Assembly (NCBI GenBank): GCA_000091205.1
Contig: AP006493.2
DNA: 64,000 nucleotides
Strand: one strand, 5' to 3'
DNA from: Cyanidioschyzon merolae
Lineage: Eukaryota
The notes below the pieces were generated by a model. That model saw nothing but the letters and a program-made list of their open reading frames with translations. It had not been told where the DNA came from and made no database searches. Below are positions 21,416 to 42,305 of this stretch, piece after piece. The number at the start of each line of letters is the position of its first letter. Position 1 is the first letter of the stretch. Both the position numbers and the translations under genes were made by a program.

Positions 21416-22199
21416 AGGTACTTGATTCCTGATGAACAATATCAGGTTCAACTAGTCCTGGATCGAATGGGACAGCGTTCGTTAGCATTTGCAGAACAAG
21501 CAGTTTTCGCGGAGGGGACCGCCAAGGACAAGTCAGTGTTCGTAAGCTATAGCACCGGGTCCGGAAATGGAGGAGGGTATCGAGTTGAGCCCTCTGTATC
21601 CGTCAAGGGCCTGTACCGAGCGAAGATGCGAGGCAACGCGCGGAATAAAGCGGATCGGGATGGAGGAGATATAACGGACATACACAGGAACTCTTGAGCA
21701 TGACCAAGTTTCACCGCAGCTAGGTGCGCATCGAATCTATATAGAATGCAGACGGAAACGGCAAGCAGAGCGTAGATCGCGTCTTCCGCGTGTGCATGAA
21801 AAGAGATGGCAAAAGCCGTTCGATGCGAAAACGGCAGATGAACACTGCCAGCAACATCAGCCGACTGCTGATAAAGAACCTGGCGAGACAAGCGCGACCG
21901 GTGTATTTAAAGCCAGGTACAAGAGACAGAAAAAGGAATCATTCAAGGAAAAAGTCTGCAAACCCGGCGTTGATGACAATGGGAACAGATCCAACCTTTA
22001 TAAAGTATGCCCCTGTTCGTGAACCTGTTTCGATTTATTCTTCTATGGGTGCCTGTCGGGTGCTGCAGTGAATGACGCGCGCACATGCCTGTCTCGCGGT
22101 GTCTCGGTTCCTAGAGCGCACTTGCCCGCAAGTACTGGCATGCTCGTATGCATTCCACATGCGATGCGCTGAGCCTCAGAACAGAGCACCTCGATGCAG

Positions 22200-24125
22200 C
22201 TACGGACTGCGCAACTGGTGCCGAGTAGATGGTGCTGCAGCTGACCCAGGCGTGTTCGTCACAGGAAGACGAGGCGTATGCGTGGGGGAATCGGTCAGTA
22301 GTACGGCCGTTGGATTCTCGCGCGACAACTCGGAGAAGAACGCGGCAAGTTCAGAGTCGTCAGGGGCAGCGTTGAGACTGCGGCTGCGAGCCCGTTCGCG
22401 CTCCGCTATGAGTGCCCCTTGACGGGCCCAGAGAAGCACCAGATGCGCATATGTTGCGTTCAAGCCAATAAGATAGAACGGGAGACAGGCTAAAAGGCCG
22501 AATATCTTGGCGAAGAAGGAGCTCCAAGGAATGTGCCAGGCAATGCCAAAAACAATGGGCGGAGCACTCGCATCTGCGAGTGCGTAACAGAGCAACCGGA
22601 AAAGCACACCACCACGTGCGTGCTTCCCATCCGAGAGTCGATGCCTTCGCATACACATCGTTCCGAAACATATCATCCAGAAGAATGTAAAAAGCACTTT
22701 GAAGTGAATATAGATCGCGACCGCCAAGTACGGAGTCGCCAACATGGGGATGCAAAGTGCTGCCGCCAACGTAGTGCACAACCATCCGGTCATGCCTACG
22801 ATCACCATCACGTAGAGGTACAGACGATCATCAAGCCCGAAAAAATACCGCATAACTCGAGTTTGTGCAAACCAATTCCCCAGCCAGAGAAACGGAGCTC
22901 GGCGGCGACGGTTTGGTGGAGCGAAACCCAGTGGATTCGACATCGACCACCAGAGCACGTACATTCCCAGATAGACACCCAGAAACCGCAAAGCAACCCA
23001 CTTCCAGTTAAGGCTGTAGTCCGGGGGATACGGATCCGACAGCTGAGATCGCATCGCGTGCCAGGCCCAGGAAAGGTCCATGACTGGGTACGTCCACCAT
23101 TGCCACGGTTTGAAGAGCGGTACACCCATGAATTCCATGATACGAAGACCACCACAGCGAGCTGGAACCTCCCACTGTAGCCGTGGATAGTACACAATAT
23201 GGTCCAAATGGTATCCAAAGGGCAATCGACGCAAGGGACCCCCGCGATGCGCATCGTCTGGCCCGAAACCTGGCGCGTAGAACAGCTCCGAGAAGTAGAC
23301 GTTGAGGAAGCCCTGGTCGCCTCCATCGTAGGATTCTGTAACGGCCAGTTTTTCGAGCATACTCTGGAAAAGAGCCTGTGATGGCCGTATAACCATAACT
23401 CCCGAATTAAAATGACAGGGATTGATAAATGCAGCGCAAAAGTCGCCACACTCGAACATGTCTTGAACATCACCTAACACCAATGTATCCGCGTCAACGT
23501 ATACGACTTTTTCGAACTGTTCAAGAGCGAAAACTTGCAGTTTTGCGAGTACATCATCAAAGCGATGATTGTAGTGTTCGCCCCCCGTGTACGGGTTCCG
23601 TACTCGACGAACCTCCAAGGTGTAAACTCCGTCACGGTGAAGCTGAGCGCGTGCTTTCGCGGAAACGTCAGCAGTCACCATGGACAGGAGGATAGCTTGT
23701 GGTTGCTGCAGGTCGTGCCCAGCTCGCGCCGCGCTCGCCGCTTCCAGCGTTCGTTCGTCAAGCTCGCCCGCCGTGCCACCAGCTGGCTCGAAGAGCACAC
23801 CTCTCTGCTGGTGAACGCGCAGCGAATGGAACATAACACGCGCCGGGAGTACGTACGTGTCACCATATAGAAAAGTAACGTACGCCAGGGGGCGCGGACG
23901 CACCACATTCGCTTGTTTCCCCCCGGGTAGCTCCTGCGTTCGTACGTGCTCGCCTCCAGCGAGCGTCTGATTTTCCGTGCTGGGAAGACTGGCACCCGCT
24001 GCACGTCTAAAAGCCGGCCAACCAGGCGGGTTTTCCAGTGACGATGATCTCAACGATGTCTGCGATGCATCCAGAAATACATATGCGCTGATGACGATAA
24101 TGAGTGCAAAAAACTTGAGCCTCAT
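22200..24125 (-). CDS. Glycogenin-like GT8 glycosyltransferase with C-terminal multi-TM domain (PGSIP6/IPUT1-like architecture)
   Basis: GT8 motifs KVVYVDADTLVLGDV (DxD), HFNSGVMVIRPS and GGDQGFLNVYF. N-terminal signal-anchor. C-terminal ~270 aa with ~6 hydrophobic helices. Confidence 0.8.
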   Translation of the reverse strand: MRLKFFALIIVISAYVFLDASQTSLRSSSLENPPGWPAFRRAAGASLPSTENQTLAGGEHVRTQELPGGKQANVVRPRPLAYVTFLYGDTYVLPARVMFHSLRVHQQRGVLFEPAGGTAGELDERTLEAASAARAGHDLQQPQAILLSMVTADVSAKARAQLHRDGVYTLEVRRVRNPYTGGEHYNHRFDDVLAKLQVFALEQFEKVVYVDADTLVLGDVQDMFECGDFCAAFINPCHFNSGVMVIRPSQALFQSMLEKLAVTESYDGGDQGFLNVYFSELFYAPGFGPDDAHRGGPLRRLPFGYHLDHIVYYPRLQWEVPARCGGLRIMEFMGVPLFKPWQWWTYPVMDLSWAWHAMRSQLSDPYPPDYSLNWKWVALRFLGVYLGMYVLWWSMSNPLGFAPPNRRRRAPFLWLGNWFAQTRVMRYFFGLDDRLYLYVMVIVGMTGWLCTTLAAALCIPMLATPYLAVAIYIHFKVLFTFFWMICFGTMCMRRHRLSDGKHARGGVLFRLLCYALADASAPPIVFGIAWHIPWSSFFAKIFGLLACLPFYLIGLNATYAHLVLLWARQGALIAERERARSRSLNAAPDDSELAAFFSELSRENPTAVLLTDSPTHTPRLPVTNTPGSAAAPSTRHQLRSP

Positions 24126-24576
24126 CGCACGGCTTGCGTACTGGGGTGCTCACACGCGCCGGTGGCATTCACACACGCTCAGACAGACAGCGGCGCATGG
24201 CGTAGACGGCTGCATCTGCAGCAGGGCGCGTTGGATGGCGCGCTGCTGGTGCGCCACAGGGTGTCGATAGCGAGGCATCCAAGGATGTTTCCCTAGACGC
24301 TGTCATATCGGATCATGGAAAGCTATTATCGTTCACCAATGACAGATGATAATCAATCCTAGTGTGGATTCAGGGCGCTGCAGTTTTCCTGGATGCCTAT
24401 TTCATACCGTACCAGTATCCCGCTCCAGGACGCAATCGAAATGCCGCACCTCCGGATCGCTAGGATTCTTCTCACTGAAAGTCTGCAACGTTTCAATAAG
24501 AGGCGCATACAGTGTACGACACGATTTACCTGAATGATCGCGCGACACATAAAGCCACTGGACGCTCCGAAATCAT

Positions 24577-25030
24577 GAGATCGTTCCCAGAGATCTCGAA
24601 TGGGGGTTTTCCAACGCTCGATAGACACAGTACATGCATGTGTTCTTATTGAAGAAATGTAAGCACGAGATCGTTCCCAGAGATCTGGAATGGGAGCTTT
24701 CCAACGCTCGATAGACACAGTACATGCATGTGTTCTTATTGAAGAAATGTAAGCACGAGATCGTTCCCAGAGATCTCGAATGGGGGTTTTCCAACGCTCG
24801 ATAGACACAGTACATGCATGTGTTCTTATTGAAGAAATGTAAGCACGAGATCGTTCCCAGAGATCTGGAATGGGGGTTTTTCCAACGCTCGATAGACACA
24901 GTACATGCATGTGTTCTTATTGAAGAAATGTAAGCACGAGATCGTTCCCAGAGATCTGGAATGGGGTTTTTCCAACGCTCGATAGACACAGTACATGCAT
25001 GTAAGCGCTCTTATTGAAGAAATGTAAGCA
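24577..25030. repeat. 90-bp tandem array, ~5 copies, inside IR arm 1
   Basis: Unit 'gagatcgttcccagagatctcgaatgggggttttccaacgctcgatagacacagtacatgcatgtgttcttattgaagaaatgtaagcac' recurs at 24577, 24667, 24757, 24847 and 24938. Confidence 0.9.
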
Positions 25031-26117
25031 TAGCGAGCTTCTCAGCTTTGATTACTTCGTGATCTGCCGTTTGCGCGGCTGACAGTGCACCATCTCGCGC
25101 ATGCAGCTCTGTTTCGCACCGTTCTTGTCTGTCGGTTTTTCAGCATGCACCCGCACTCGTAGCGCATGTACGTCGTGCTGAACGCACCGACAGGAAGCGT
25201 GCGGCATAGGCACCTGAGCTTATTGGACACTCCCGTCGAAGCATGAGCAGGTCCGCGTCCTTTGCGCGCTTCTGAACGTCCAGCGTCATAGGCTGCCGCC
25301 AGGAAACGATTGGACCTGCCGGGGATTTTCGCTTGGAATTCACCGATAATGCCGGTGAATGCGAGTTTCCCGCCTCTGTAGAAGCGACACCGTTTGCGAC
25401 CTCAGCGTAGTACCAAGGACGCCCACCAAAGACCCTCCACACGATGCATTTGGTCGCTCATGGACGCTCGGAATAAATTATAGGAAGCATAACCCTCGGC
25501 TCCATACGGTGCCTGGAGCGTCGACTTGGGTCCTGATGCCGCCACCGCTCCCCTTGCTGTTCGTATGCCTTCTAGCGCCCATCACGTCCGACTGCCGCTC
25601 ATACCGAGCGATTGAAGAGGTTGAACAGGTTCATCCGCTTTCCGTTCAGGTTGTGACCTCCGCCATCTTTCAATAGATAATCGGTGGCGGTGATGATTTC
25701 CCCCCAGCGGGGATCGACGCACGGCACGTGACCTTTCCCTTCATGTGCCCGGATCCGTTGGATATGCGTTTCGTGGCTCGACGCAGGTTTCGGATTCACA
25801 AGCGTCACAAAGACCGTCGAGCTTGGTATCCCGTCGGTCGCCGTCGTCCCTGGAAACGAGAAATCTTGAACGAGCGCCGCCAGTGCTCTTCGTGTGGCTG
25901 CTCGGACGCTTCAGGCTTACTCGCAGAGAGCAGCGGCACCGCACAGAGGAGGCCATCCAGTACACAAGTGTCTACTGACGCGCGATTCACCTTGATCTGG
26001 CATACCGAGACCACGTCGAATAGACGCGTGACGTGCACCGGACGGTCGGATCCCGAGATGGGGGCTGCTCAGCTCTGGAAGCACCTGTCCAGAGAAACGT
26101 GGTAGCACAGGAGCCAA

Positions 26118-26121
<4 letters not shown>

Positions 26122-26182
<61 letters not shown>
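26122..26182. repeat. (CAGG)n microsatellite, ~15 units, inside IR arm 1
   Basis: Direct reading: aggcaggcaggcagg... run. Confidence 0.9.
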
Positions 26183-28671
26183 TGCGCTTCAGCCACTTTT
26201 CGGATACGATATCTGCAGGTGCGACGCCGAGCACTAAACGATATCGTCGGGCGATCTGGGGCGATTCTGGCTCTCGTTGCTGCATTTTTTTTCGAAGTCG
26301 ATACCAGTTGGAGCTCTTGCGTATCCAGCTCGTCATTTGCCTCCATCGATATCCAAGAATCCCGTCAACCTATCTCCCCTGTTCTGGACCACTGAGGTGA
26401 GGCTGCGACATGCAGAGGGCGCGCTGCATGGGGCGCTCGACATTGGCCGGCATGTGGTTTTTGAGGTTGGCCCCAGACATGCCGGCACCTGCGCTGCGGA
26501 CGTTCTCATTACAGACGCCGGCCTACGAAGCGTCACGGCATGCTGGGTGGCGTGTTCTCAAACCCTGGATGCCACGACCAGGCCGTATTGCATCTTGTTT
26601 TCTGGCCATCTGTTGTCGCACGAACGTTTCATCGAAAGGTTATGAGAGGAATGTAGACAACTGGCGGCCGTGCGTCCAGCCCTCCGATGAGCAGATGCTT
26701 GACGAGGCGCGTCTGGGCGAGCGCAGCTGGGCGAGCCTTCGTTGAGTACGAAGCTGCGCGATCCTGAATGGCGTCTCGCATCTCACGGCTTGACAGATTC
26801 TCGCGGGTGGTGCATTTCTTGGGGAAGCGGTGGCATCGCTTTGAGACAGATCTTGTCGCTCCGACATCTGTTCCTCCCCGTCGCTCCTTACCCTATTCTC
26901 GGAAGGCTCTTTCTCTGGTTCGCCCGGTGGTCGCTTTTCTTTCTCTAGTTCCTGGCAGGCGCCCTGCATTCCATCTCTATCGAGCATATCTGTATGTCGT
27001 TCTCCCAGTGGAGACTCAGGCGCACTGGGTGGAAGGTTGCACTGAAACTCGCCCTTTCTATGTATGTATCGACTACTCCTCAAGCACCTCTCCATCGTCG
27101 TATCCGCCGAGAGCTCGCCCACGGACGGAAGCGCGCCTCTCAGCTCCCGTCCGGGCACGAGCAGCGCGGCGACGCATCAGCTCATGGCTTGCAAAGGTGG
27201 AGAATGGCTTCTCCAAGAACGGTGTCACAGATGCGGACGGCTCGTCGAATGAGTCGTGAGCATCCATCCATGGTTCGACAAACTGAGCAGGCTCCTTCAG
27301 CTGGACGGAACCAGGACGAATAGGCTCACGCAAACATCAGCTCAATGCCAAGCTCAGCTGCACAATCCGTGGCCGCTCTTGCGTGACAGAGGGCGACCTT
27401 GTCCAAGAGCGTATCAGAAGAATGTGGAAAGGAGAAGCCGAAAAGCGCTTCGACGCATCGTGAGGAGTTGAGTGATCACGGCTCTTTTGCTATTTGGTGT
27501 TGGCGACACCGAAGCCTCGCACCCAGGCCAGCTGGTGCCGTCCTGCTCGCTAATCTCCTTTGTAGGAATAGCGATTTGTCCCTCTTTGAGTAGGCATTCA
27601 CAGGTGTACCATCCCTCCAGATTCGAGTCTCAGCGATTGAGACGAACACCTCACGCTCCGGTAACAAACGTCCACGCGTCCATACGAGATCAATAGAGTG
27701 TTGTTTATTGCACGACAGTCTTCACGACGAGCGTTTTTCTCCTGTGTCTATCAGCGTGTCTTCATCAGCATTCGTATGAACCACACGGAAGCCTCACATC
27801 CTATGGCTTCCTTCGCCGTGTTCCTAGTAGAATGCATGGAATTCAATGGATTATCCAGGACACAGTCGTCTTGGTGGCGTTCGGTGACTTCTGTTTCGGG
27901 TGCACGATGCTCAGGACAGAGACGAGAACAGGAGCGCTTCATCCACTTGCGTATTAAAAAGTATCCGACATGTACGAGAATGACGATTTTTCGCAAACTA
28001 GCAGTCACAGCACCAAGTGTGCACGAGATTCTACTCCAATGTACAAAATATATTCCTTTTATAGTATACCTGCGAGAAAGACAATCAAATACGAATCAGG
28101 CGCTCTGGCACTAGAATCTCAGACTTCGATACACTTTGTCACAGAATACTAGGAGAGATGCATGCGATGACGTTTCCCCACGCACACAGAGATTATCATT
28201 CGAAGCAAGTGCCAGATTAAAATTCGAGACTGGGGTGTCCACGCTGTCTTGCCATTCGATTTTTCCAGCCATTTTTCAGAGGCACAGCCTCGGCATTCGA
28301 GGTGCAACGATGACGGCATGGGAATTCATACGTAGAGTTAGAATTCTCAGTCGTTATTTAGGAGAAGCATCTTCTACGCTGCGTCATGGGAATTCGTCAC
28401 GACACCGGACTGTCTATCTTTCGCGAAGCCTTCGAACAAGTTTTCATAGCATGACCGATGCCATTATCCAGTTCGTACGTACAGGTCCCTACTATTCTTC
28501 TTACCTCACATGCAATATGGTCAAACCACGCATTACTCAAGTTTTCGATTTTTCTGTTCGACGGCTACTCGTGGGCGCAGCATTACACGCAGGGGCATCG
28601 CTGACGAAAGCGACTCGGCGTCGTCACTCGAAGACTTGCTCACAAGCTCATGCCACAATTCACGTTACGTC

Positions 28672-29448
28672 TCACGCAGAGTAATCGATGCCAGTCGGAA
28701 CACAAATCCTCCTCTCTATTTTGCCATTCGCTAAACGGGATTCGATCGCAGCATGGTGCCTCCGACTAGCTACGCTCTCAGAGGATCCCGTCTCTTCACT
28801 TTCCTCAGAGAAGCTTTGTAGAGTCTGACATGAGTCATTACGGCGATTATTTTTCGTGAATCGCGCGTCACTGCTTTGCACGAAGGGGTCATACGAGGTT
28901 AGAAATATCCCAACGTGTCCTCCTGCCTGAAGTTTACTTCCTGCATTTGTTTCATCATGGAAAAACATCGCATGCCACAAATCCTCCTTCAAATGCAGCA
29001 GCATGCGCTTCCATATGCAGCTGACGGCATACTCTCCGAGCGAATTGCCTAGAAAAAGCCAGTGATCGTGGGGTCCAGCACTGGGCGCGGAAGCAGAGCA
29101 GGGTATCGAGCGGAGCCGTCTGTACCGGTCAGCCGCACACCCCGAGCAGAGATGCATGTCTAAAAGAGCCACAGGGCGATCATCGTAGTGCCCGGTGCGC
29201 TGGGCGTTCGGGAACACCTGACCGCAACCAAGCTCCATCGTTACGAAAGGCGTATCGAGACAGGTTGCGAAAAAGATGATCATGGCAAGTGAAGCGTAGA
29301 CCACAATTTCCGCCCGTGCATGAACTGTGTCGACAGCTTCTGGAAGCTGCGTGATTGGGACTTGAACGCCGCCATCAACATCATTCGACTGCTGACAACG
29401 GATCTGGAGAGACCGGAGAGACCAACGTGTCTGAGGGCAGAGATACAA
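28672..29448 (-). CDS. Hypothetical 258-aa protein. The only copy of the ~0.8 kb repeat-gene family with one uninterrupted reading frame; lies in the IR spacer
   Basis: A continuous ORF contains all conserved blocks found split across frames or stops in the other three copies (…LGCGQVF…HDHWLFLGNSLGEYAV…FFHDETNAGSKLQAG…QSDARF…ANGKIERRICVPTG). Function unrecognised. Confidence 0.35.
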   Translation of the reverse strand: MYLCPQTRWSLRSLQIRCQQSNDVDGGVQVPITQLPEAVDTVHARAEIVVYASLAMIIFFATCLDTPFVTMELGCGQVFPNAQRTGHYDDRPVALLDMHLCSGCAADRYRRLRSIPCSASAPSAGPHDHWLFLGNSLGEYAVSCIWKRMLLHLKEDLWHAMFFHDETNAGSKLQAGGHVGIFLTSYDPFVQSSDARFTKNNRRNDSCQTLQSFSEESEETGSSESVASRRHHAAIESRLANGKIERRICVPTGIDYSA

Positions 29449-30096
29449 GAGATAGGGAAAGGAAGCAATGACAAAAAATGACTGATATGCGTAGTATTTA
29501 TTTCAGCAAAACGAGACCCACACTTTAGCTTGTATACCTGTGTTCGTCGACCTTTTCCATGAAACGCTGATGTACGTGTAAAGGGCCGCTCTAAAGGCGG
29601 GAAAGAACCAAGGGCGCAAAGCATCTCTTTGGAGTCGAGAGCGCCGAATCCACTCATACATGAAATGTTTGTATTCGAGGCTCGGAGCGACTCGGTCTAG
29701 TCGAACAGAAGAAACCGATGCGTTATAGGGAAACTTTTTGGAGTTACGTTTGATATTTCTTGTCAGAGAATACTTTGTGTTGATTGCCATACAAGTGCAT
29801 CGGGCTCTCAGCTGAACGTACGCGATCCAGCTGCCGAGCATCCAACGGAACAGACAACGCAGTTTGTCGACAGAAGCCACTATACGCCGGAATCGGGCGC
29901 AGCGGCTGTGTAATCAACCTTTTGAGACTCCGCTTGGGAAACCGAGTGTCCTCCGAAGTACGACGCGCTGCTACTTGCTTCTGGGGCCGCTTCAGGAAAA
30001 ACTGCCCCCTAGCTGACGGCGACGCGACCTGGGCTCCAAACTTCAGCGTTCCCTGGGAGCGTTTCGGCTAGACGATCCTCATTCGCCCACAAGCCC

Positions 30097-30339
30097 ATGG
30101 ATCTTCTGCCTGTGCTGCGATCCCAGGTTCACGTTCAAACGACCGACGGGCGCCTCCTAGCGGGCAAGCTGTTAGCGTTCGACGCTCATAGCAATTTATT
30201 ACTCAGCCACTGTACAGAACGTCGCGGGGAATCAGCGAAACGCTACTTGGGCATGGTGCTGGTGCGCGGGGAGCATGTGCTCGCAGTTATCACGCCCAGA
30301 ATCACGGAAACTGAACAGAAAACTGCCGCATCTGAATGA
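30097..30339 (+). CDS. Sm-like protein (LSm8/SmB-type Sm fold)
   Basis: Sm1 motif (TTDGRLLAGKLLAFDAHSNLLLSHCTE) and Sm2 motif (RYLGMVLVRGEHVLAV). 80 aa. Confidence 0.7.
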   Translation: MDLLPVLRSQVHVQTTDGRLLAGKLLAFDAHSNLLLSHCTERRGESAKRYLGMVLVRGEHVLAVITPRITETEQKTAASE

Positions 30340-31410
30340 ACGTAGTCATAGCATAGCCTCAGCGCGTTGATGTCTTCTCCGGTCGTATTGCTTTGAGGCA
30401 ACAGACCACCCGAACGGATTCCAAGCGCTTGGTATCTCGATGCGGACTTTGCATAGCACGGAGGACTTGTTAGGGGGCACGAATCGAGATTCAAAAAGGA
30501 ATAGCTGCTCAGAATCGTTAGGGCGTGAGCTGCCACGCAAACCAGCATGGTTAGAGACGTACTCTCTAGCGTCGATGCACACTCGCACGCAATCTACGAT
30601 GCGTACTCTCAAGTAGACCAGCTCTGAAACCGGTTGTATCGAGACTGAGGCATGAACAATACCAGGGCGGCCCTGAAAGTCGTCGTAGAGATGCCGACGG
30701 TTACGGGAAAGTCTCTGCGAGCGGTATGTCCGCCAGATTTTCCGCGGCTTCATCGTGGCTCGCAAGCCCTTGTGAACTACGACTGGCATGGTTTAGTTTT
30801 CGTTGCCCATGCACCACACAAATACTGCTTGGCCCCACATCCAGAAATCGGAGCAACACGGGTTCGAGCACTGCGTCTGAAGAGGGCATCATACAAGGCG
30901 GGTACAGCTTGCGCGGAGGCGAAACTGCCGCTGATCTCGGTTTGCTGTTCTTGGCGGCAACCAGTATATATAGCAACGCACTGGGCGACGTTCAATGCCT
31001 CATGCTATGCTGGGCATCCTTCTGGACCTGGAGTCGGCAAGTTCGTTCGGGATAGGCTTTTCTTTCATCAAAAACCACAGCAGTGACGCGAAAGAGAATG
31101 TTTACGAATGTACATGCGATATGACGAGTCTTCAACGAAGCGTTAGCGGTGTCCGCTGCACTAGTCGCGTCCAGGGCACAGCGATCGCGGACGTGGCAGC
31201 GGTGATCGTGTGGGCCTGCACCCCTTTTGCGAAAGATGCAAATTGGTCATGTTGATGTCGGTTCCCGGCACATCACTTACACGGCTCTACACGATCGCAC
31301 AGGAACTGCCGATTATTTTCTGCTGCTGCCTCATCAGACGAAGACACATCCCTGATCCTGCGGCGCCTGGCCTCATCGACGTTCGTGCTACAGGTGCACT
31401 GCGCAGAGGC

Positions 31411-33027
31411 CTAAAATCCCAAAGATTCCGGTGGCAACGCATTACCTGTACTCGATAGGGCGCTTACCAGATACAGAAACAGGGCGAGTCCGCCCAGCGC
31501 CAAAAACGGTATCCAGTCCTGCATACCGTTATCCATGAGTGCATCGTTCCAGTCGTCAACCATGTCTTCCTCATCAGGGAACGCCTGGGCCTCCTTGGAG
31601 CGGAACGCACTGCGCCTCCCGCTACTGCTACCAGCACGCCATCGAGTGCCCTGACTTGCTTTCCGGTAGGCTTCCTCCTCTTCAAAGCGAAGGAGCTGTT
31701 CAAGGTACGGGTCTCGATTCTGTGCAGTTTCCCGATCCTCCGCTCCGCGTCGGCGACCACGCGGCCCGTCGTACTCGTTCGGCATTGCAGGAATGCCGCT
31801 AATAAGCGGACGGTCGCTACGGACACCACCGTGCTTGTCGCGAACGCGAACCCGCAGCGACTCGTCCGCAAGCACGCCCGTGGGTAGCGGCACGCTCTGC
31901 CCGATGAACACGCGCACCAGACGGTGCCACCAGTCGTCACCGTTGGCCACGCTTGCGGGTTCATATTCATCAAATGCGTCTGCCTCGCCCTCTTCATCAA
32001 AAACGGCCCGCCGGACTGTGCGATAACGTCCGAAGCGCCGTTCTCTATCTGCAGCGCCGCCTTCGTCACCGCGAGGTGCTGCACGTTGTGCGCCTATTCG
32101 TTCGTTCGGCACATCCCTGCCCATCGGTGCATACTCTGGAGAGTCATTTTCCGTATCGGAGAGGGACCTGGGCGATGGCATGGACTCCCAGCGGTCCAGC
32201 TGGTAGTTTCCGCTTGGAACGCGACCGTTTTCCCTGATCCAGTCACACAGCACCGACTCCAAAACGTCTGGTGTAGCTTCTTGCGAGCCACGAGTCGGGA
32301 AATACGTTTTAAAATAGCGGCAGAGGGACGGTTGCAACTTTCGATGCACTTGCAGCTTCGCGAGGACGTTTTTTGTGTAACCAACATACCGAAGCGTGCG
32401 TTCTTCATCGAATACTGCGTAAGCACCAGTGCGCTCCCAACGCTCGGGTTTCCTCGAAAGTTCCTGAACAGACAGCAGCGGAAGATCCGCTAAATATACG
32501 CGTTCTTCAACCTCCTGCTCGGAAAACGGAGGCGGTTCCCGAGCGCGTTCGTCCTGCGACCGAGGTTCCTCCGCCGAAGCAAGCGCTACCAAGCAGCCAC
32601 AGCCCCGGTGGGCAAGCTGCCGAAGGCGAGGCGCTCGCTGGTCAACGAAACCCAAGTATTGCCTTGCGCGTGCTCGCCTACTCGTTGTACTGTAGCGCCA
32701 AACACACGGCTGCGTCCACATACACCCGAGTATACACGCTCGTTCGCCACGAAGCGAATGCGTAGTAAGATTCGTACGAGGACGTGCACAGAACACCGCC
32801 TTCACGCCAGTACACTTTGTCATGTATTGTACAACACACACTAGGACGATTGCCCCCGTCGACAGATGCCATGGTGCACACATCGGGCGACGTCTCCGCG
32901 GGACGCACGCCCCGTCGGCGTCGGCGGTGGCCGCTCGCCTACCTATCATTCGCTGCGCGCTGCGTGCGTTGCCGGTGCCGGGGCATCGTATGATTTCCGC
33001 CCGCTTCGCTCGGCACGTGAAGCGCAT
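31411..33027 (-). CDS. Hypothetical protein with a possible GIY-YIG-like nuclease motif and a C-terminal TM tail anchor. True start is probably an internal Met, since the N-terminal ~150 codons look non-coding
   Basis: …TGAYAVFDEERTLRYVGYTKNVLAKLQVHRK…ESVLCDWIRENG resembles GIY…YIG(S/T)…R…H…E. C-terminal WIPFLALGGLALFLYLVSALSS is hydrophobic. The remainder is acidic and Arg-rich with low complexity. Confidence 0.3.
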   Translation of the reverse strand: MRFTCRAKRAEIIRCPGTGNARSAQRMIGRRAATADADGACVPRRRRPMCAPWHLSTGAIVLVCVVQYMTKCTGVKAVFCARPRTNLTTHSLRGERACILGCMWTQPCVWRYSTTSRRARARQYLGFVDQRAPRLRQLAHRGCGCLVALASAEEPRSQDERAREPPPFSEQEVEERVYLADLPLLSVQELSRKPERWERTGAYAVFDEERTLRYVGYTKNVLAKLQVHRKLQPSLCRYFKTYFPTRGSQEATPDVLESVLCDWIRENGRVPSGNYQLDRWESMPSPRSLSDTENDSPEYAPMGRDVPNERIGAQRAAPRGDEGGAADRERRFGRYRTVRRAVFDEEGEADAFDEYEPASVANGDDWWHRLVRVFIGQSVPLPTGVLADESLRVRVRDKHGGVRSDRPLISGIPAMPNEYDGPRGRRRGAEDRETAQNRDPYLEQLLRFEEEEAYRKASQGTRWRAGSSSGRRSAFRSKEAQAFPDEEDMVDDWNDALMDNGMQDWIPFLALGGLALFLYLVSALSSTGNALPPESLGF

Positions 33028-33472
33028 CGGGGCGGCTTTCGGGGACGACGAGGCTTCCCGCGCAGCGGCGACGCTGGCGGTACAAATTGGAATAGGCTTC
33101 GGCGGGCGTCGCTGCGATCACGAGCGTTCGGCGGTGATCCGTGACGGCACCGGAAATTGCCAGGAGGCGCTCCAGACGCATTCGCTCGTGATGGCAAATC
33201 GCCGCGTCGGCGATCACCGGCGCTCGTCGGCGGCACTGCGCCGCAATCTCGCAACGCACGTGCGTGCGCTATCCTCGCGGCGAAAACAATACCGTGCGTG
33301 GACAAGGCCACTATCTTGTCGAGGCTCTACACAATGAATGGGGAAACTAGTTTATGACTTTTCCAATCAAAAGAGCTTTCCTTGGAGTTTCCAGAACCGT
33401 TCGAGCCAACGTCAGAAACCGAACCTAAACCAGCAAGCCTCCTTAACAGCGACGCACTATGTACTCGAACGT

Positions 33473-33991
33473 TTACGCCTCCGCACGTTCAGTGTCTGCC
33501 TCACCGACATCATCCGAACTTCCTTTCTGTCCCCGCTCTACCGCAAGAGTGACTATCAGTGCAAAGAGGAGGAGCGCGAAATCAATCCACGAGAAGCCGA
33601 GCACTGCGTTCTCCTTCTTCGAACGACTGCCTCCGATTCTCGCACTCACAACAATGGCCCAGATCATTGCCCAGATAGTATTGAAGCCGTTCACAGCTAC
33701 TTCGAAAATGAATATGTGCGGTTCAAGGCTAGATACGAAACTCCCGATAAGCACGAACATAAACGTGAAGAGCGCAAATACGAACATGATCACGTTGTCC
33801 GCAATACCAAAGTTACAGATACTCACTGACGTACCAACTGTTCCTGTTGTATAGAAATGAGGGAAGCAGTACCGCTTACCATTGATGATGGGCTTCAAGT
33901 CGTGCACAATAAGCGCAAACGACGCGATAGACAGTGCGATAACCACGAAATAGCAAAACAGGCGAAAGCCGCGAGCGATATCGAGCGCCAT
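33473..33991 (-). CDS. Small 4-TM membrane protein (MARVEL/CASP-like topology)
   Basis: 172 aa with four evenly spaced hydrophobic helices and a charged C-terminus. No catalytic motif. Confidence 0.35.
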   Translation of the reverse strand: MALDIARGFRLFCYFVVIALSIASFALIVHDLKPIINGKRYCFPHFYTTGTVGTSVSICNFGIADNVIMFVFALFTFMFVLIGSFVSSLEPHIFIFEVAVNGFNTIWAMIWAIVVSARIGGSRSKKENAVLGFSWIDFALLLFALIVTLAVERGQKGSSDDVGEADTERAEA

Positions 33992-36360
33992 AATGATTCG
34001 GCTTATTACGAATGTTCAGAACGTAACACGTTATAGTAACGTAACCAGAGACTCTACGCTTTGCACGCTATGACAGTCGGGAGCGGAGCACTTGTAAAAC
34101 CGCTTATGCACAACTCGAAGCGAGCTTTAAATTAAAACCGTCGTGATCACCAGGCGATGGCCGCACGCGTCGCGAACCATCCTTCAAAAGATGGAGCTCG
34201 TCGCGCCTTCGCCGCGGCGTCCAGGCGACGGCTCGAGATCGACCATCGACATCTGGATCGCCCGTGTGGATCTTCATTGAAGCAGGTGGCGCCACGTGGC
34301 CCCGTCGCCGCGACTCAGTCGAAATCGGCAACGCTGCGGCGCCCTGCCGCGGTGGCCCCGTAGCGCGGGAGATTGCTTCAGCGCTCGACTGTGTCGCGGC
34401 ACGTGCTGTAGACGGAGCAGTGATCGCTAGAAACCCTGCATCAGAACGGCCTTTTTGTTGTTATTTGTTTTTCTCAGGGTTATTGAACAGAGGGATTGTA
34501 TGATGGAGGTTGGAGAAACGTTGTGGAAAGTCTTGATACTATCACAGCTAGTTTGCCATGCTGGTTTTCGTTGTACGAGTTCAGGTATGCTCTGGCTAGC
34601 TCGTGGATGAAGCGCTCCTGTTCTCGTCTCTGTCCTGAGCATCGTGCACGCGAAACAGAAGTCACCGAACGCCACCAAGACGACTGTGTCCTGGATAATC
34701 CATTGAATTCCATGCATTCTATTGGGAACACGGCGAAGGAAGCCATAGGATGTGAGGCTTCCGTGTGGTTCATACGAATGCTGATGAAGACACGCTGATA
34801 GACACAGGAGAAAAACGCTCGTCGTGAAGACTGTCGTGCAATAAACAACACTCTATTGATCTCGTATGGACGCGTGGACGTTTGTTACCGGAGCGTGAGG
34901 TGTTCGTCTCAATCGCTGAGACTCGAATCTGGAGGGATGGTACACCTGTGAATGCCTACTCAAAGAGGGACAAATCGCTATTCCTACAAAGGAGATTAGC
35001 GAGCAGGACGGCACCAGCTGGCCTGGGTGCGAGGCTTCGGTGTCGCCAACACCAAATAGCAAAAGAGCCGTGATCACTCAACTCCTCACGATGCGTCGAA
35101 GCGCTTTTCGGCTTCTCCTTTCCACATTCTTCTGATACGCTCTTGGACAACGTCGCTCTCTGTCACGCAAGAGCGGCCACGGATTGTGCAGCTGAGCTTG
35201 GCATTGAGCTGATGTTTGCGTGAGCCTATTCGTCCTGGTTCCGTCCAGCTGAAGGAGCCTGCTCAGTTTGTCGAACCATGGATGGATGCTCACGACTCAT
35301 TCGACGAGCCGTCCGCATCTGTGACACCATTCTTGGACAAGCCATTCTCCACCTTTGCAAGCCATGAGCTGATGCGTCGCCGCGCTGCTCGTGCCCGGAC
35401 GGGAGCTGAGAGGCGCGCTTCCGTCCGTGGGCGAGCTCTCGGCGGATACGACGATGGAGAGGTGCTTGAGGAGTAGTCGATACATACATAGAAAGGGCGA
35501 GTTTCAGTGCAACCTTCCACCCAGTGCGCCTGAGTCTCCACTGGGAGAACGACATACAGATATGCTCGATAGAGATGGAATGCAGGGCGCCTGCCAGGAA
35601 CTAGAGAAAGAAAAGCGACCACCGGGCGAACCAGAGAAAGAGCCTTCCGAGAATAGGGTAAGGAGCGACGGGGAGGAACAGATGTCGGAGCGACAAGATC
35701 TGTCTCAAAGCGATGCGACCGCTTCCCCAAGAAATGCACCACCCGCGAGAATCTGTCAAGCCGTGAGATGCGAGACGCCATTCAGGATCGCGCAGCTTCG
35801 TACTCAACGAAGGCTCGCCCAGCTGCGCTCGCCCAGACGCGCCTCGTCAAGCATCTGCTCATCGGAGGGCTGGACGCACGGCCGCCAGTTGTCTACATTC
35901 CTCTCATAACCTTTCGATGAAACGTTCGTGCGACAACAGATGGCCAGAAAACAAGATGCAATACGGCCTGGTCGTGGCATCCAGGGTTTGAGAACACGCC
36001 ACCCAGCATGCCGTGACGCTTCGTAGGCCGGCGTCTGTAATGAGAACGTCCGCAGCGCAGGTGCCGGCATGTCTGGGGCCAACCTCAAACACTACATGCC
36101 GGCCAATGTCGAGCGCCCCATGCAGCGCGCCCTCTGCGTGTCGCAGCCTCACCTCAGTGGTCCAGAACAGGGGAGATAGGTTGACGGGATTCTTGGATAT
36201 CGATGGAGGCAAATGACGAGCTGGATACGCAAGAGCTCCAACTGGTATCGACTTCGAAAAGAAAAGCAGCAACGAGAGCCAGAATCGCCCCAGATCGCCC
36301 GACGATATCGTTTAGTGCTCGGCGTCGCACCTGCAGATATCGTATCCGAAAAGTGGCTGA

Positions 36361-36387
36361 AGCGCACTGCCTGCCTGCCTGCCTGCC
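36361..36387. repeat. (CCTG)n microsatellite, ~7 units (mirror of the arm-1 CAGG run, contracted)
   Basis: ctgcctgcctgcctgcctgcctgcctcg. Confidence 0.9.
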
Positions 36388-37479
36388 TGCCTCGTTTGGC
36401 TCCTGTGCTACCACGTTTCTCTGGACAGGTGCTTCCAGAGCTGAGCAGCCCCCCTCTCGGGATCCGACCGTCCGGTGCACGTCACGCGTCTATTCGACGT
36501 GGTCTCGGTATGCCAGATCAAGGTGAATCGCGCGTCAGTAGACACTTGTGTACTGGATGGCCTCCTCTGTGCGGTGCCGCTGCTCTCTGCGAGTAAGCCT
36601 GAAGCGTCCGAGCAGCCACACGAAGAGCACTGGCGGCGCTCGTTCAAGATTTCTCGTTTCCAGTGACGACGGCGACCGACGGGATACCAAGCTCGACGGT
36701 CTTTGTGACGCTTGTGAATCCGAAACCTGCGTCGAGCCACGAAACGCATATCCAACGGATCCGGGCACATGAAGGGAAAGGTCACGAGCCGTGCGTCGAT
36801 CCCCGCTGGGGGGAAATCATCACCGCCACCGATTATCTATTGAAAGATGGCGGAGGTCACAACCTGAACGGAAAGCGGATGAACCTGCTCAACCTCTTCA
36901 ATCGCTCGGTATGAGCGGCAGTCGGACGTGATGGGCGCTAGAATGCATACGAACAGCAAGGGGAGCGGTGGCGGCATCAGGACCCAAGTCGACGCTCCAG
37001 GCACCGTATGGAGCCGAGGGTTATGCTTCCTATAATTTATTCCGAGCGTCCATGAGCGACCAAATGCATCGTGTGGAGGGTCTTTGGTGGGCGTCCTTGG
37101 TACTACGCTGAGGTCGCAAACGGTGTCGCTTCTACAGAGGCGGGAAACTCGCATTCACCGGCATTATCGGTGAATTCCAAGCGAAAATCCCCGGCAGGTC
37201 CGATCGTTTCCTGGCGGCAGCCTATGACGCTGGATGTTCAGTAGCGCGCAAAGGACGCGGACCTGCTCATGCTTCGACGGGAGTGTCCAATAAGCTCAGG
37301 TGCCTATGCCGCACGCTTCCTGTCGGTGCGTTCAGCACGACGTACATGCGCCACGAGTGCGGGTGCATGCTGAAAAACCGACAGACAAGAACGGTGCGAA
37401 ACAGAGCTGCATGCGCGAGATGGTGCACTGTCAGCCGCGCAAACGGCAGATCACGAAGTAATCAAAGCTGAGAAGCTCG

Positions 37480-37690
37480 CTATGCTTACATTTCTTCAAT
37501 AAGAGCGCTTACGTGCATGTACTGTGTCTATCGAGCGTTGGAAAACCCCCATTCCAGATCTCTGGGAACGATCTCGTGCTTACATTTCTTCAATAAGAAC
37601 ACATGCATGTACTGTGTCTATCGAGCGTTGGAAAGCCCCCATTCCAGATCTCTGGGAACGATCTCATGATTTCGGAGCGTCCAGTGGCTT
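37480..37690. repeat. 90-bp tandem array in IR arm 2 (reverse complement of the arm-1 unit), ~2.3 copies
   Basis: tgcttacatttcttcaataaga...ccagatctctgggaacgatctc appears twice plus a partial copy. Confidence 0.85.
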
Positions 37691-39739
37691 TATGTGTCGC
37701 GCGATCATTCAGGTAAATCGTGTCGTACACTGTATGCGCCTCTTATTGAAACGTTGCAGACTTTCAGTGAGAAGAATCCTAGCGACCCGGAGGTGCGGCA
37801 TTTCGATTGCGTCCTGGAGCGGAATACTGGTACGGTATGAAATAGGCATCCAGGAAAACTGCAGCGCCCTGAGTCCACACTAGGATTGTGTATCCTTGGT
37901 CATTGGTGAACGATAATAGCTTTCCATGATCCGATATGACTGACTATATGGCCTCCATTTGTGTGCTGGTATCCCGCACCAACCCTAATCTGAGCATGCG
38001 CCGGCATCCGCATACTGAGACAACGGTCTTCTGTCCGTGAGCAAACCTTACAGAAGAATATTCAGGGAATGTTCAAGTAGAGGACAGTCCTCCTGCACTT
38101 GGCAATCCGAGTTGCATACGAAGGGAGCGAACGCCAAGGCCAACGCGGCACCCCCTGCAGGAAAATTCAAAGCTGAACATATGCGCAGAGTTTGTGGACA
38201 AAATTTTTCCCGGATCCGCGTCCAAGCTTTGCATCCCCTACTCATCGTGATCGCTGGGTCGGCAGCTTTGCATAACGATAAGCTGGTAGGTAGCCCCGTT
38301 GGACCGCCGTGCCGTAACAGCGCTGAAGCTGACGGCATCAGCAGCGGCGGTGGCAGGCCTACCAAAAACCCAACCTCGAACTACTGATGATGATGATGCA
38401 AGCACAGAGCTTGGCATCTGGGACAGCGTCACTTTCGAATGTGTCCCGATGGCAACCGCCTGCCCACATGTGTTGACGTACCTTGCAACCGATTACAGTA
38501 ACAGTCGTGGAGACGCACGTCCAGGAGTCGTATGCGTTGACGCTCTCGGCGTTCAACGCAGGGCGTCCACCGCGCTACGAAACGCTGTTGCTTGCCATTG
38601 CATGGTAACGGAGTGCCGCTCCCGGAACCCGGCAACCGTATGATTTCTGGCGACTCTCCGAGTTCGGTTTCTATTCAGACGCTCGCTGACAGCGGGAGTA
38701 GGGGTGAGCTGAGGTGCGCTCGGCAGCCACGAAGCGCTCTCTCAGTGAAGGACCCTCCGTGTACGCGTATGCGAGTTCGTTTCGGGTAGACCGATTCGAT
38801 CGAGGCGGACTTTAGAACTCCGGATACACACGGCAGCATCCGACGACACGGATCGGAGATTTAGATTACCGTAACCCCAAGGACCGTTGGATCGAGGCAG
38901 AGTTTTCTGGATGCCTTGACCCTACCGAATTCCAGGAAAGAGATCTCAGTTCCATCACAGACGCTTTGTCGATGCAGCAGGCCCTAGTCTGTCCTCCGCA
39001 CTCTAATACAAGTATGACGGGTTCCATGACCGAGCGACACTGGATGGACAGCTGTCGCCGCGGACGCCGCACAGAGACAGCGTGGTGGTTTGGCGATGCT
39101 TGCGCGGGTGCCTTCTCACGGCATGCATCGGGAACTACAAAAAACGACTCCGAGCGAAGTCGTGAAATGCGAGACGGGAATTTGCAAATGAGTGCTGTAC
39201 CAGCATCGTCATGACGCAAAGGGTGAGCAGCATTTGAGCTGCTTCAGATTCTAAGCACCGTAGAAAACGCAGATGAAATCAGAAGCGAGTATGAAACACT
39301 ACCGGGCGTGCAGCGCTTTCCCCAGACGCGAAGAAACTCGGATCCATTAACGTCAAATTGTAACAAGTCCTTGCAGCGCATTGCGTCTCACATGCACCCC
39401 GAGCACTGCACGGCGGAACAGCCATAGCGCGCCCCTTTTAAACCCGTGCCAGAATAACATACACCAGGTCGTCAGCGACGAGCGTACACACTGACCTTTG
39501 GGGACTCCTTAACAGTATCGTCAGGTTGTTGCCGGCTTTTTCTGTGACGGCTTCATAATCCTCTCTCTTATTCCCGACTTTGAACATAGTGGTCTCTCTT
39601 GTCACTCTGGCAGCGTTGTCAGCGGCCGACGGATGTTGACCGCTGCCGTAAAGTCGAGACTACGCCGGTTAAGGCTGTTGCCAATGCGTTTTATCGATGG
39701 ACGGAAGTTGCGATCTATGCTTTGATTGCCATGCTCACC

Positions 39740-40460
39740 ATCTTTGTATCCAGCCTGGTTGCGCCCCGCACACCGCTGACACTCGACTGTGGTCAGGTGT
39801 TCCAGTACGTCTATCGCGCATCTCATCTGCTGAGCACCGCCCTGTGATACGAGAACGCTCGTTTCATCGCGCGGCACGTGCCCTTTGACAGGGACAGAGG
39901 GCATCACTTGATGCATTCCTCCATTTCCCTGCCGAGCGCCGTACACCACGATCACGGACCTATTCTGGGCGACAATTTAATTGACAGGTACGCTGTCCCA
40001 TTCCATGGAGGATTCGTGGAACACAATAATGTCCATGATGAAACAAGTACCGTAAGGAAACTCCAGGCTGTTCATCAACTCGAGACATTTCGATCCGCCT
40101 CTGGCCGCTCCATGCAAAGCGGTGACGCATTCTCCACTGCGGGCGATCGCTGCGTTGACTAGCGTCCGAATCCAAGACGTTTTCGCATGGAAACACGAGA
40201 CAGGAGAGCGTCTGGAAACGTATCTCGTGACACGTATGATGCTGCTGTGGGATGCTGCTTCCTGAAGAACCATAAAAACGAACGGATTTGTATTTTAAAC
40301 ATTAACAAGTTTAAGACGTGGGAATTCCAGGGAAATCTCGGCGTGAGCTTGTAAACAAGTTGTCAAGTGACAACGTCCAGGTTTTTTCGTCGATCATGTA
40401 GAATCGCGAGTGGCTGCACCCTCGTGTTGCCTTGAAAAAGAGAAATAGAAAACTCGAGAA
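39740..40460 (+). pseudogene. Copy 2 of the ~0.8 kb repeat/gene family (in-frame stop after ...LDCGQVFQYVYRASHLLSTAL)
   Basis: Protein-level blocks CGQVF, SAVHHDHGPILGDNLIDRYAV, HDETSTVRKLQA and QSGDAFSTAGDRC in the same frame as the intact copy. 3' nucleotide block 'gttgccttgaaaaagagaaatag'. Confidence 0.45.
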
Positions 40461-41051
40461 ATCAATGATCTGAGCATGGTACACGTAAGAAAAGGTCAAG
40501 AGCGGAGGCTCATACGTATGAAATGGAACGTGATATCGGTAATTTTACGAACCCTTGTTCCGCGACATCGTGAATCATATCGACTCTGGTGACGTATCGA
40601 ACTCCACCGGCAAACCGTCGAAGCAGGCGCTCCATCAAAGCGGCCGAGCATCCCCATAAGACGTCTCCATTGGTAAGCGCTCATTCCTGCACCAGGAATG
40701 TCGTGACTGTCCATCTACACAGAGTTCGGAAACAAGATCGACGTTCAGGAAGAGAGCGAGTCGCTCAGTGTTCTGTGCCAGTCTGAAACGGGTGCAGGAG
40801 TTCACGCATGCACACATATCGATACCAGCTGCTGCTAACTAGCGCAGAAGGAATGCCCTCGACTGCGCCACGAAGCCGGCATCGCGTGGAAACCTTTTCC
40901 TTGCCATGTCTGAGCATGGGTACGATTTCATCTACGCGAGTCGCGTACGCCATACGGCACTGACCGGCAGGGTCTCTAGGTTTGCTCAGTTTACAGAGTC
41001 TTTCGCGAGAAGCTTCTTGGATGGCGATCGCCAGTGACGACATAGACGCCT

Positions 41052-42305
41052 CTACAACATATCACTGATGTCGACCGGCATTTCCTGGATTTCACAGTTG
41101 TAATAGGCCTCTATCTCGCGTAGCGTCCGCACATCCTCATTGGCAAGGAAGTTGATCGCAACACCTTTGCGACCGAAGCGCCCGGAACGGCCCACACGAT
41201 GAATATAGTTCTCCCTGTTTGACGGTAGATCGTAGTTGATCACGAGACTCACCTGCTGCACGTCAATACCGCGAGCGAGCAGATCCGTCGTGATCAACAC
41301 GCGCGACGAGCCTGAGCGAAACTCGCGCATGATCAGATTTCGCTCCTCTTGGCTCATGTCTGCATGGATAACTGAGACCGTAAAGTCGCGTTCACGCATA
41401 CGTTCACTGAGCCATTCAGCCTTACGCCGGCTGTTCACGAAGATAACGGTCTGCGAAGCAGAAATGGTTTCGTACAAATCAATCAGAGTCTCTAGCTTCC
41501 ATTCTTCCTTCTCTACCATGATGTAAAACTGTCTAATACCCTGCAGTGTCAATTCATCTTTCCGAACCAGGATACGTGCCGGATCCCGCAAAAATTTTTC
41601 GGCCATTTCGACGATCTCGGCGGGAATCGTGGCGCTGAAAAGCGCCACCTGACAGTTTGCCGGCATGTATTGGAAGACCATGTAGATTTGCTCCTTGAAA
41701 CCACGAGAAAGCATCTCGTCTGCTTCGTCCATCACAAAACACTTGATAGTCGTCGTATCCAACGCTCTTCTCTGGATCATATCGTACACTCGCCCGGGTG
41801 TTCCGACGATCACGTGCGGCGTGTCCTGTTCCAGCGTCCGCAGGTCGTCTACAACCCTTGTACCGCCGATGCACGCGTGAACTTTAACGCCCATATAGTC
41901 GCCTAGAGCCAGCGCCACTTTTTGGATCTGTTGCGCAAGTTCGCGCGTCGGTGCCAGAATCAGACCCTGAACTTTGCGCACCGAGGTATCCACGTTCTGG
42001 AGCATGCCGATGACGAAGCACCCAGTCTTCCCGGTGCCAGACTGGCTCTGCGCGAGCATGTCACGCCCTTTCACCATTGGTACAATGCCACGTTGCTGGA
42101 TGGCCGACGGCTTCTCAAAACCATACGCGTAGATGCCTCGCAAAAGCTCATCGCGCAGCCCCATGTCGTCGAAGGACTCGTAGACCTCTGTCACGTTGGA
42201 GTCGATTTCCCCTGCGCTCTCTACGTTTTCAACATGCTCAGCATCATTACTGTAGCCGGTATCTCTCGAAACAGCAACCGAACTTGTGCCGTTCGCTTCC
42301 GCCAT
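41052..42305 (-). CDS. EIF4A: Translation initiation factor eIF4A (DEAD-box RNA helicase)
   Basis: [43 protein letters not shown]. 417 aa. Colinear with eIF4A. Confidence 0.95.

Follow-up and report, generated by a model that had tools for sequence, protein, structure and literature searches.

A palindrome on chromosome 11 of Cyanidioschyzon merolae: a probable lineage-specific inverted duplication whose arms appear to exchange sequence

We analyzed a 64-kb stretch of DNA (the window) from Cyanidioschyzon merolae 10D, which exact-sequence look-ups place on chromosome 11 (852,849 bp) over the genes CMK020C-CMK028C. Near its middle lies a palindrome of 13,639 bp, in which two reverse-complement arms enclose a unique spacer. 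The evidence laid out below makes it probable that this structure is a lineage-specific inverted segmental duplication, that is, a nuclear palindrome, whose arms exchange sequence and which is most likely neutral. As far as the literature was searched, the palindrome has not been described previously. Among free-living eukaryotes, C. merolae has been put forward as having the simplest genome, of which transposons make up about 0.7% (PMC1955436), and a palindrome of 13.6 kb stands out because it lies in a genome that is minimal in this way.

Results

The palindrome in the reference genome and in wild assemblies

An inverted-repeat search of the window returned three collinear inverted blocks between positions 24291-27946 and 34603-37951, which are 1790, 1274 and 441 nt long and have identities of 99%, 99% and 96%, respectively. 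When the window was compared with itself by blastn, the core of the arms (34603-37671 against 27946-24841) aligned over 3106 columns with 27 mismatches and two gap openings, which corresponds to an identity of 97.9% with gaps counted and about 99.1% by substitutions only, and an outer block (37483-37940 against 24755-24302) aligned over 458 columns at 96.1%. The limits of the arms and of the spacer (Table 1) were set from the junction sequences. These results bear out a previous sequence-only reading of the same DNA, which had proposed a 13.6-kb palindrome with inverted arms around a 6.66-kb spacer and had estimated the identity of the arms at about 99%; even the outer block is well above 90%. 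The same reading had described the arms as GC-rich, which they are not, as their guanine-plus-cytosine (GC) content is 54.5% and 55.4%, against 55.6% for the window. An identity of 99% over three kilobases cannot be due to chance.

The two arms differ in length by 307 bp because a 90-bp satellite and an AGGC microsatellite within them differ in copy number, and the copy number of the satellite also varies among the wild contigs described below. The outermost ~155 bp of the arms are clearly more diverged than the remaining arm, with eight substitutions between left and right. These sites, at distances of 43-155 bp from the unique flanks, read in 10D AGTATTCA in the left arm and CAGCACTG in the right arm.

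Two smaller features of the arms were also observed. The motif AATGGGGG is present in three of the five left and in both right copies of the satellite, and it equals the 9-nt telomere repeat of C. merolae, AATGGGGGG (PMC1955436), minus one G; the full 9-mer does not occur anywhere within the window. At the right outer junction (37937-37944), the sequence reads GATATGAC on the arm side and TGACTATA on the flank side, so that TGAC, the terminal 4 bp of the arm, occurs a second time in the flank as a direct repeat, with no equivalent at the left junction. It could be that this short repeat is microhomology from the event that placed the right copy.

About 70 loci, 97.5-99.3% identical to the window, were obtained from ENA, JGI and Logan assemblies of wild Cyanidioschyzon by look-ups with spacer, flank and arm proteins and by one pattern scan. 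The outer-left junction is crossed by contigs L001, L025, L026, L029 and L049, the inner-left junction by L001, L006, L063, L064, L067 and L069, the inner-right junction by L002-L005, L008, L023, L068 and L070-L072, and the outer-right junction by L003, L023, L050, L061 and L062. Look-ups with the glycogenin-like protein, eIF4A, the MARVEL protein and variants of the arm open reading frame (ORF) mostly returned contigs that end at the arm boundaries, and the four loci from the one pattern scan of metagenomes all fall short of the spacer. Three unitig-like contigs (L009, L010 and L076) end exactly at these boundaries, as is expected of a two-copy inverted repeat, and two of them, the Logan contigs L009 and L010, consist of the spacer alone. 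Since all four junctions recur in independent assemblies, the palindrome is not an assembly artefact, and the caveat of a collapsed or mis-joined assembly, which the earlier reading had raised, is refuted.

Absence of the arms from a sister species

The orthologous locus was found in a sister species whose genes are 70-80% identical to those of the window at the nucleotide level, on a 163-kb JGI contig (L011) and in an NCBI assembly (L012, GCA_041825655.1). Both carry eIF4A, the MARVEL gene, the orthologue of CMK023C, the LSM gene and the glycogenin-like gene within about 10 kb, in the same order and orientation as in the window, and the gene numbering of Cyanidiococcus yangmingshanensis agrees with this order (PMC13353863 supplement). 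Neither contains an inverted repeat, and neither shows any similarity to the arms. The same order and orientation in a species without arms indicates that the orientation seen in the window is ancestral and, as the genes are resident where the arms are missing, that the arms were gained around the three-gene block in the Cyanidioschyzon lineage. The question of whether the repeat is conserved at orthologous loci thus has a divided answer: it is kept, with identical boundaries, in all sampled lineages of wild Cyanidioschyzon, and it is missing from the sister species.

A structure that is present in one lineage and missing from its sister could also be a mobile element, either a foldback or long-terminal-inverted-repeat (long-TIR) transposon or a composite of two insertions of one element. 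The inverted termini are long and have tandem copies of the 90-bp satellite towards their outer ends, which recalls foldback elements, and a copy of a lineage-specific repeated family, described below, adjoins the left arm. We nevertheless regard a mobile origin as improbable. The sister species has the spacer genes as syntenic residents, which means that the unit did not enter as a single insertion. Target-site duplications are lacking, as there is no direct repeat of at least 3 bp at the outer junctions of the whole unit and none was seen by eye around each arm. Terminal repeats were not found inside an arm, nor was a third arm-like copy found in the window, and no transposase, integrase or any other Pfam match was found in the arms. 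The sole arm ORF that was picked by gene callers has one cluster, ~98% identical, among 5.8 billion proteins, and transposons make up only about 0.7% of the C. merolae genome, with 34 elements (PMC1955436). The earlier preference for a host inverted segmental duplication over a TIR transposon or Polinton stands, given the syntenic spacer genes of the sister species and the lack of a target-site duplication, of a transposase and of further copies in the window.

Coding and RNA tests of the arms

With a codon model trained on the genes of the window, the arm ORFs scored between -0.10 and +0.03, while nine of the ten training genes scored about 0.13-0.24. None of the ten arm ORFs has a Pfam match, exact look-ups with the 10D arm ORFs returned no matches, and the 2026 re-annotation places no coding sequence in the arms. 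The arms also have no match in Rfam, either at the gathering score or at E up to 1, and no transfer RNA. The arms look non-coding, and they carry no transposase, integrase or polymerase genes, as had been read from the sequence alone. Divergence between 10D and the wild lineages is ~1.6% in the arms, 0.5-1.8% in unique intergenic DNA and 0-0.7% in coding DNA, and the arm sequence itself appears to be unconstrained.

The protein tables contain no entries for CMK021 and CMK025-027, and the gaps correspond to ~24126-30096 and ~33992-41051 of the window. These tags may denote non-protein features, such as hypothetical transcripts, in or beside the arms. The unaccounted-for tags are one argument for a functional element, for example a centromere flanked by inverted repeats, a pair of non-coding RNA genes or an insulator around the very highly expressed CMK024C. 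The geometry, with a core and flanking inverted repeats that each measure a few kb, resembles the centromeres of fission yeast and Candida tropicalis, the structure has been kept in all wild lineages sampled, and the lowest-GC 2-kb stretch of the window (48.7%, 27801-29800) lies mostly in the spacer, with C. merolae centromeres reported to be 2-3 kb long with ~48% GC (bioRxiv 10.1101/096016). A function of any of these kinds is, however, quite unlikely. The centromeres of C. merolae have been described as having no pattern beyond low GC (bioRxiv 10.1101/096016), the spacer contains expressed genes, with the expression of CMK024C being very high, and equally low-GC patches occur at least four times in the 64 kb, where they coincide with copies of the dispersed family. 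The arms change no more slowly than unique intergenic DNA, and the lack of an Rfam match extends, as stated, to E up to 1. The GC content of the spacer is 54.0% overall, and a centromere was set aside as an unlikely candidate because the low-GC patch is one of several tied to the dispersed family and the core holds a highly expressed gene. A link to mating type was likewise set aside, as the mating-type region lies at CMK076-078 on the same chromosome, ~50 genes away.

Sequence similarity of the arms within and between lineages

All available arm copies were aligned, and distances were taken over the arm interior (about 2840 sites). The left and right arms of 10D differ at 22 of these sites. 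In a wild lineage designated X, copies at the 27947 end (L064 and L063) differ from copies at the 34602 end (L003 and L005) by 3-10 sites, whereas any 10D arm differs from any lineage-X arm by 37-47 sites. In a 10D-like wild lineage, L001 and L061 differ from each other at 7 sites and from either 10D arm at 15-17. As the distances within lineages are smaller than those between lineages, the arms group by lineage and not by side.

Because a collapsed assembly could mimic such a grouping, we also considered sites that are linked to unique DNA by reads. The bases T at 27844, GA at 27853-4 and A at 27872 are found in both arms of lineage X and in neither arm of 10D. These shared substitutions lie within 103 bp of each unique spacer end, where a single read links them to unique DNA.

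The edges of the arms point in the same direction. In most wild contigs the outer-edge block is arranged left and right as in 10D. A right-type block is, however, found on the glycogenin-like flank in L028 and L070, a left-type block is found on the eIF4A flank in L050, and L023 and L071 carry outer-edge mosaics that form a ladder, with one switch within 5 bp. Allele pairs at the inner edge are swapped relative to 10D in a single contig, L006, and homogenised in L007. The endpoints of exchange are scattered along the arms, and the outermost ~155 bp is the part that escapes exchange most often.

About 12 of the left/right differences of 10D are private to one 10D arm, which indicates that there was hardly any difference between the arms at the time when 10D separated from the wild strains. 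Arm divergence is 0.1-0.8% within a genome and ~1.5% between lineages, and this difference, together with boundaries that are identical in all lineages, argues for continuing exchange between the arms and not for a very recent origin. The earlier reading had left these two possibilities side by side, and the lineage grouping, the read-linked shared substitutions and the edge alleles settle the choice in favor of exchange. A recent static inverted duplication, in which the arms are alike by youth and have undergone neither exchange nor inversion, would explain why the 10D arms differ by just ~0.8-0.9% in the core, and the ~12 private differences would fit independent drift since the split from the wild strains. 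We consider this very unlikely, since the repeat is older than that split (its boundaries are the same in three wild lineages that lie ~1.5% from 10D in the arms) and since divergence within a genome is below that between lineages. Youth would also leave unexplained the four read-anchored substitutions on both arms of one lineage, the edge alleles on both flanks and the mosaics with so close a switch.

Orientation of the spacer

Five distinct contigs span a whole arm from flank to spacer, all of them assembled from short reads, which cannot bridge 3.3 kb. The reference arrangement is seen in the ENA contig L001, which joins the glycogenin-like flank to the 27947 end of the spacer, and in the JGI contigs L003 and L023, which join the eIF4A flank to the 34602 end. 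The flipped arrangement, in which the glycogenin-like flank is joined to the 34602 (MARVEL) end, is seen in the JGI contigs L002/L015 (3300050377) and L070 (3300050748). The flipped junction thus comes from two different samples, and most other assemblies break at the arm. These two wild contigs, which show the junction predicted for a flipped spacer, suggest that the spacer inverts by crossover in the arms.

An inversion between 10D and the MS1 Ha3 genome has been published (PMC13353863) and was considered here. It is illustrated on chromosomes 3 and 19 and is therefore silent on the palindrome locus, and a whole-genome dot plot would miss a flip of 6.7 kb. The idea that a flip of the spacer would alter the expression of the cassette found no support, as identical arms buffer the spacer genes from a change in their local surroundings.

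Genes of the spacer and flanks and a dispersed ORF family

The genes CMK020C, CMK022C, CMK023C, CMK024C and CMK028C are consecutive rows in the 2026 re-annotation table of the Plant Cell study, from whose supplement the locus tags and expression values were taken (PMC13353863). Their positions are given in Table 1 with those of the other features. The LSm gene that had been predicted in the spacer is confirmed as CMK022C, and the predicted protein with four transmembrane segments (4-TM) as CMK024C, for which four segments are given in that supplement. In Pfam, CMK024C has a sub-threshold match to DUF6632 alone. Its normalised expression is ~7,000-9,400, compared with tens to hundreds for its neighbours, and in Cyanidium caldarium a gene of this type is present in three tandem copies whose expression is strongly condition-dependent (PMC13353863 supplement).

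For CMK023C, which had been read as GIY-YIG-like, the assignment stands in part. Residues 184-275 match PDB 2LWF, the N-terminal domain of the chloroplast monothiol glutaredoxin S16 (GRXS16), at E=5e-6, and we take this domain to have the GIY-YIG endonuclease fold; the GIY-YIG match in Pfam is weak and below threshold (E=0.11). An orthologue of CMK023C is present in the sister species. Its true start is uncertain because the lengths called in wild contigs differ (436, 490 or 591 amino acids). No recombinase domain was found in the spacer genes or in the flanking genes searched.

Table 1. Positions of the palindrome, its repeats and the neighbouring genes in the window
Feature	Position	Strand	Remarks
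CMK020C, left flank, glycogenin-like, GT8	22200..24125	-	start codon 176 bp from left arm
Left arm	24302..27946	+	3645 bp, non-coding; limits from junction sequences
Outer-edge block, left arm	24302..24456		8 left/right differences; mirror block ~37786-37940 in right arm
90-bp satellite, left arm	24577..25030		5.0 copies (TRF)
AGGC microsatellite, left arm	26121..26182		15.5 units (TRF); Logan contigs break there
Unique spacer	27947..34602		6656 bp; three resident genes and one copy of lineage-specific dispersed family
258-amino-acid ORF	28672..29448	-	only intact-looking family copy in window; unannotated in 10D
CMK022C, Sm protein B-like	30097..30339	+	Pfam LSM E=2e-16; exact match BAM80420
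CMK023C, conserved hypothetical protein	31411..33027	-	GIY-YIG-like region and hydrophobic C-terminal segment; longest ORF 538 amino acids
CMK024C, 4-TM protein	33473..33991	-	exact match BAM80422; UniRef name MARVEL domain-containing
Right arm	34603..37940	-	3338 bp, non-coding; inverted match to left arm
CTGC microsatellite (AGGC on the other strand), right arm	36367..36392		6.5 units (TRF)
90-bp satellite, right arm	37483..37665		2.0 copies (TRF)
CMK028C, right flank, eIF-4A	41052..42305	-	3.1 kb past right arm

The spacer also holds an ORF of 258 amino acids, for which tblastn found five relatives elsewhere in the window. All five are degenerate, and the earlier description of this ORF as the only intact member of a dispersed family is therefore correct for the window. 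Outside the window its sole relative is its own orthologue cluster, from Cyanidioschyzon metagenomes, and the family has no Pfam match and no match in the locus of the sister species. The six copies (15638-16525, +; 21180-21941, -; 28672-29448, -; 39590-40605, +; 53128-53871, +; 61634-62476, -) are spaced roughly 6-13 kb apart, with amino-acid identities of 25-34%, and every copy except the one in the spacer is degenerate or frameshifted. The six are seemingly intergenic, and none is annotated in 10D. At least four of the copies fall where the GC content of the window is locally lowest, and copies are also breakpoints of several JGI contigs. Further tandem duplications were observed at 49152-49330 (83 bp x 2.1) and at 62243-62472 (122 bp x 1.9), the latter within a copy of the family. 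We considered whether the original duplication unit was larger and included a family copy, and rejected this, as the two nearest copies share only 28% amino-acid identity and are placed asymmetrically.

Discussion

We interpret the palindrome on chromosome 11 as an inverted segmental duplication of the Cyanidioschyzon lineage. In the sequence of events that we propose, two copies of a non-coding sequence of 3.3-3.6 kb would have been gained on either side of CMK022C-CMK023C-CMK024C, at a time when this three-gene block already lay between the glycogenin-like gene and eIF-4A. General homologous recombination between the arms would then repeatedly copy or swap sequence, so that a substitution in one arm passes to the other and the two arms of a lineage come to resemble each other more than they resemble the same-side arms of other lineages. 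Such exchange would be least effective at the outermost ~150 bp, which would explain why these are the most diverged. Where this recombination ends in a crossover, the spacer would be inverted, and both orientations would be expected in populations. General homologous recombination is the likely agent because the endpoints of exchange are scattered and because the organism is recombination-proficient, as C. merolae has been described both to integrate targeted DNA by homologous recombination and to recombine direct repeats (PMC13353863). The structure is most likely selectively neutral, since the arm sequence shows no constraint and identical arms would buffer the spacer genes. A stronger form of this proposal, in which the spacer flips frequently by ordinary homologous recombination and both isomers coexist within clonal C. 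merolae populations, as in plastids but in the nucleus, is possible but tentative, and we would sooner expect it to fail than to hold.

Several considerations weigh against the interpretation of the palindrome as an inverted duplication with exchanging arms, or against parts of it. First, all data from wild strains are short-read assemblies of metagenomes or runs. In such assemblies near-identical arms can collapse into one, which would inflate the similarity of arms within a lineage and from which only sites near unique DNA escape, and the routing of a contig through a whole arm is not trustworthy. Second, the complementary flipped junction, from the eIF4A flank to the 27947 end, was not recovered among the wild contigs, and a contig from the same project series as the flipped ones is most likely a chimera. 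This contig (L024:1-930; JGI 3300050386, Ga0506592_001174) switches at 34095, just upstream of CMK024C, to an unrelated ORF, which was read from its translation as a sterol-glucosyltransferase-like gene, and it was accordingly set aside as evidence for an alternative structure. Third, the diversity of mosaics at the arm edges could come partly from allelic recombination in sexual crosses after a single conversion. Finally, copies of the arms may exist beyond the 64-kb window in the rest of the 10D genome, and CMK021 and CMK025-027 could be non-coding transcripts that lie within or next to the arms, in which case the view that the arms have no function would lose strength. An artefact in the 10D reference itself, with one arm duplicated or misjoined, can practically be discounted: although the 2004 draft had misassemblies and the sequences of 13 filled gaps match other regions at 99.4-100% identity (PMC1955436), there are 27 core substitutions and two unequal variable repeats between the 10D arms, which were therefore resolved separately, and the junctions are reproduced in many samples.

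The locus does not indicate a new biological mechanism. It could, however, be used to measure rates of conversion and inversion directly, as homologous recombination is efficient in this organism and crosses are now possible. If the coexistence of isomers proves true, the palindrome would be a natural, marker-free reporter of inverted-repeat recombination, able to set conversion against crossover and mitotic against meiotic events, in a minimal-genome eukaryote with efficient gene targeting and a newly discovered sexual cycle. On the practical side, neither short-read assemblies nor gene-targeting constructs will be unambiguous around CMK020C-CMK028C.

Among known systems, several resemble the palindrome in geometry and differ from it in content. 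Foldback, long-TIR and composite transposons share its long inverted termini, its outer tandem sub-repeats and its gene-bearing middle, but the palindrome has neither a target-site duplication nor a transposase, it has no other copy in the window, and its middle genes are syntenic residents. The FLP/FRT system of the yeast 2-micron plasmid and the invertase switches of bacteria likewise bound a segment with inverted repeats so that it can take two orientations. Here, however, there is no recombinase gene in or next to the palindrome, the repeats are kilobases long and the exchange points are spread. The one nuclease-like candidate, CMK023C, has a GIY-YIG nuclease-like region only and is also present in the armless sister species. 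The centromeres of Schizosaccharomyces pombe, Candida tropicalis and Komagataella phaffii are alike in geometry and in having repeats that are homogenised within a chromosome, but the core in C. merolae differs in that it contains expressed housekeeping-type genes.

The plastid inverted repeat is closer in its behavior, as it too is a large inverted repeat with copy correction between its two copies. In plastids the intervening single-copy region is inverted by general homologous recombination without a dedicated recombinase, as would be expected for the spacer here. The plastid repeat carries ribosomal RNA and other genes, however, whereas the C. merolae arms are gene-free, nuclear and single-copy per genome, and coexisting isomers are here at most suggested by contig junctions.

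The palindromes of mammalian sex chromosomes (P1-P8 of the human Y, and those of the X) provide the fullest parallel. They too have inverted arms of ~99% identity or more around a unique spacer, with concerted evolution of the arms, grouping by lineage, paralogous variants that are swapped or homogenised, and differences in microsatellites and other variable repeats inside the arms. Spacer inversions are known for palindrome P6 (PMC3723533). The differences lie in scale, content and setting. Mammalian arms range from 9 kb to 1.45 Mb, compared with 3.3-3.6 kb here, which is about a thousandfold below the largest. The arm identity of Y palindromes is 99.9% or more, whereas that of 10D is ~99.1%, and the GC content of the 10D arms equals the genome average. 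Mammalian arms bear testis-expressed genes, and in C. merolae the arms are non-coding and the genes lie in the spacer; protein-coding genes in the arms are a trait typical of the mammalian examples, though not one that strictly defines a palindrome. Finally, mammalian palindromes reside on sex chromosomes, whereas the host here is a haploid unicellular alga and the chromosome an ordinary one. Our results show that a small nuclear repeat without coding function, in a haploid alga, is also subject to the arm-to-arm concerted evolution that is best known from mammalian sex chromosomes and from organelle genomes.

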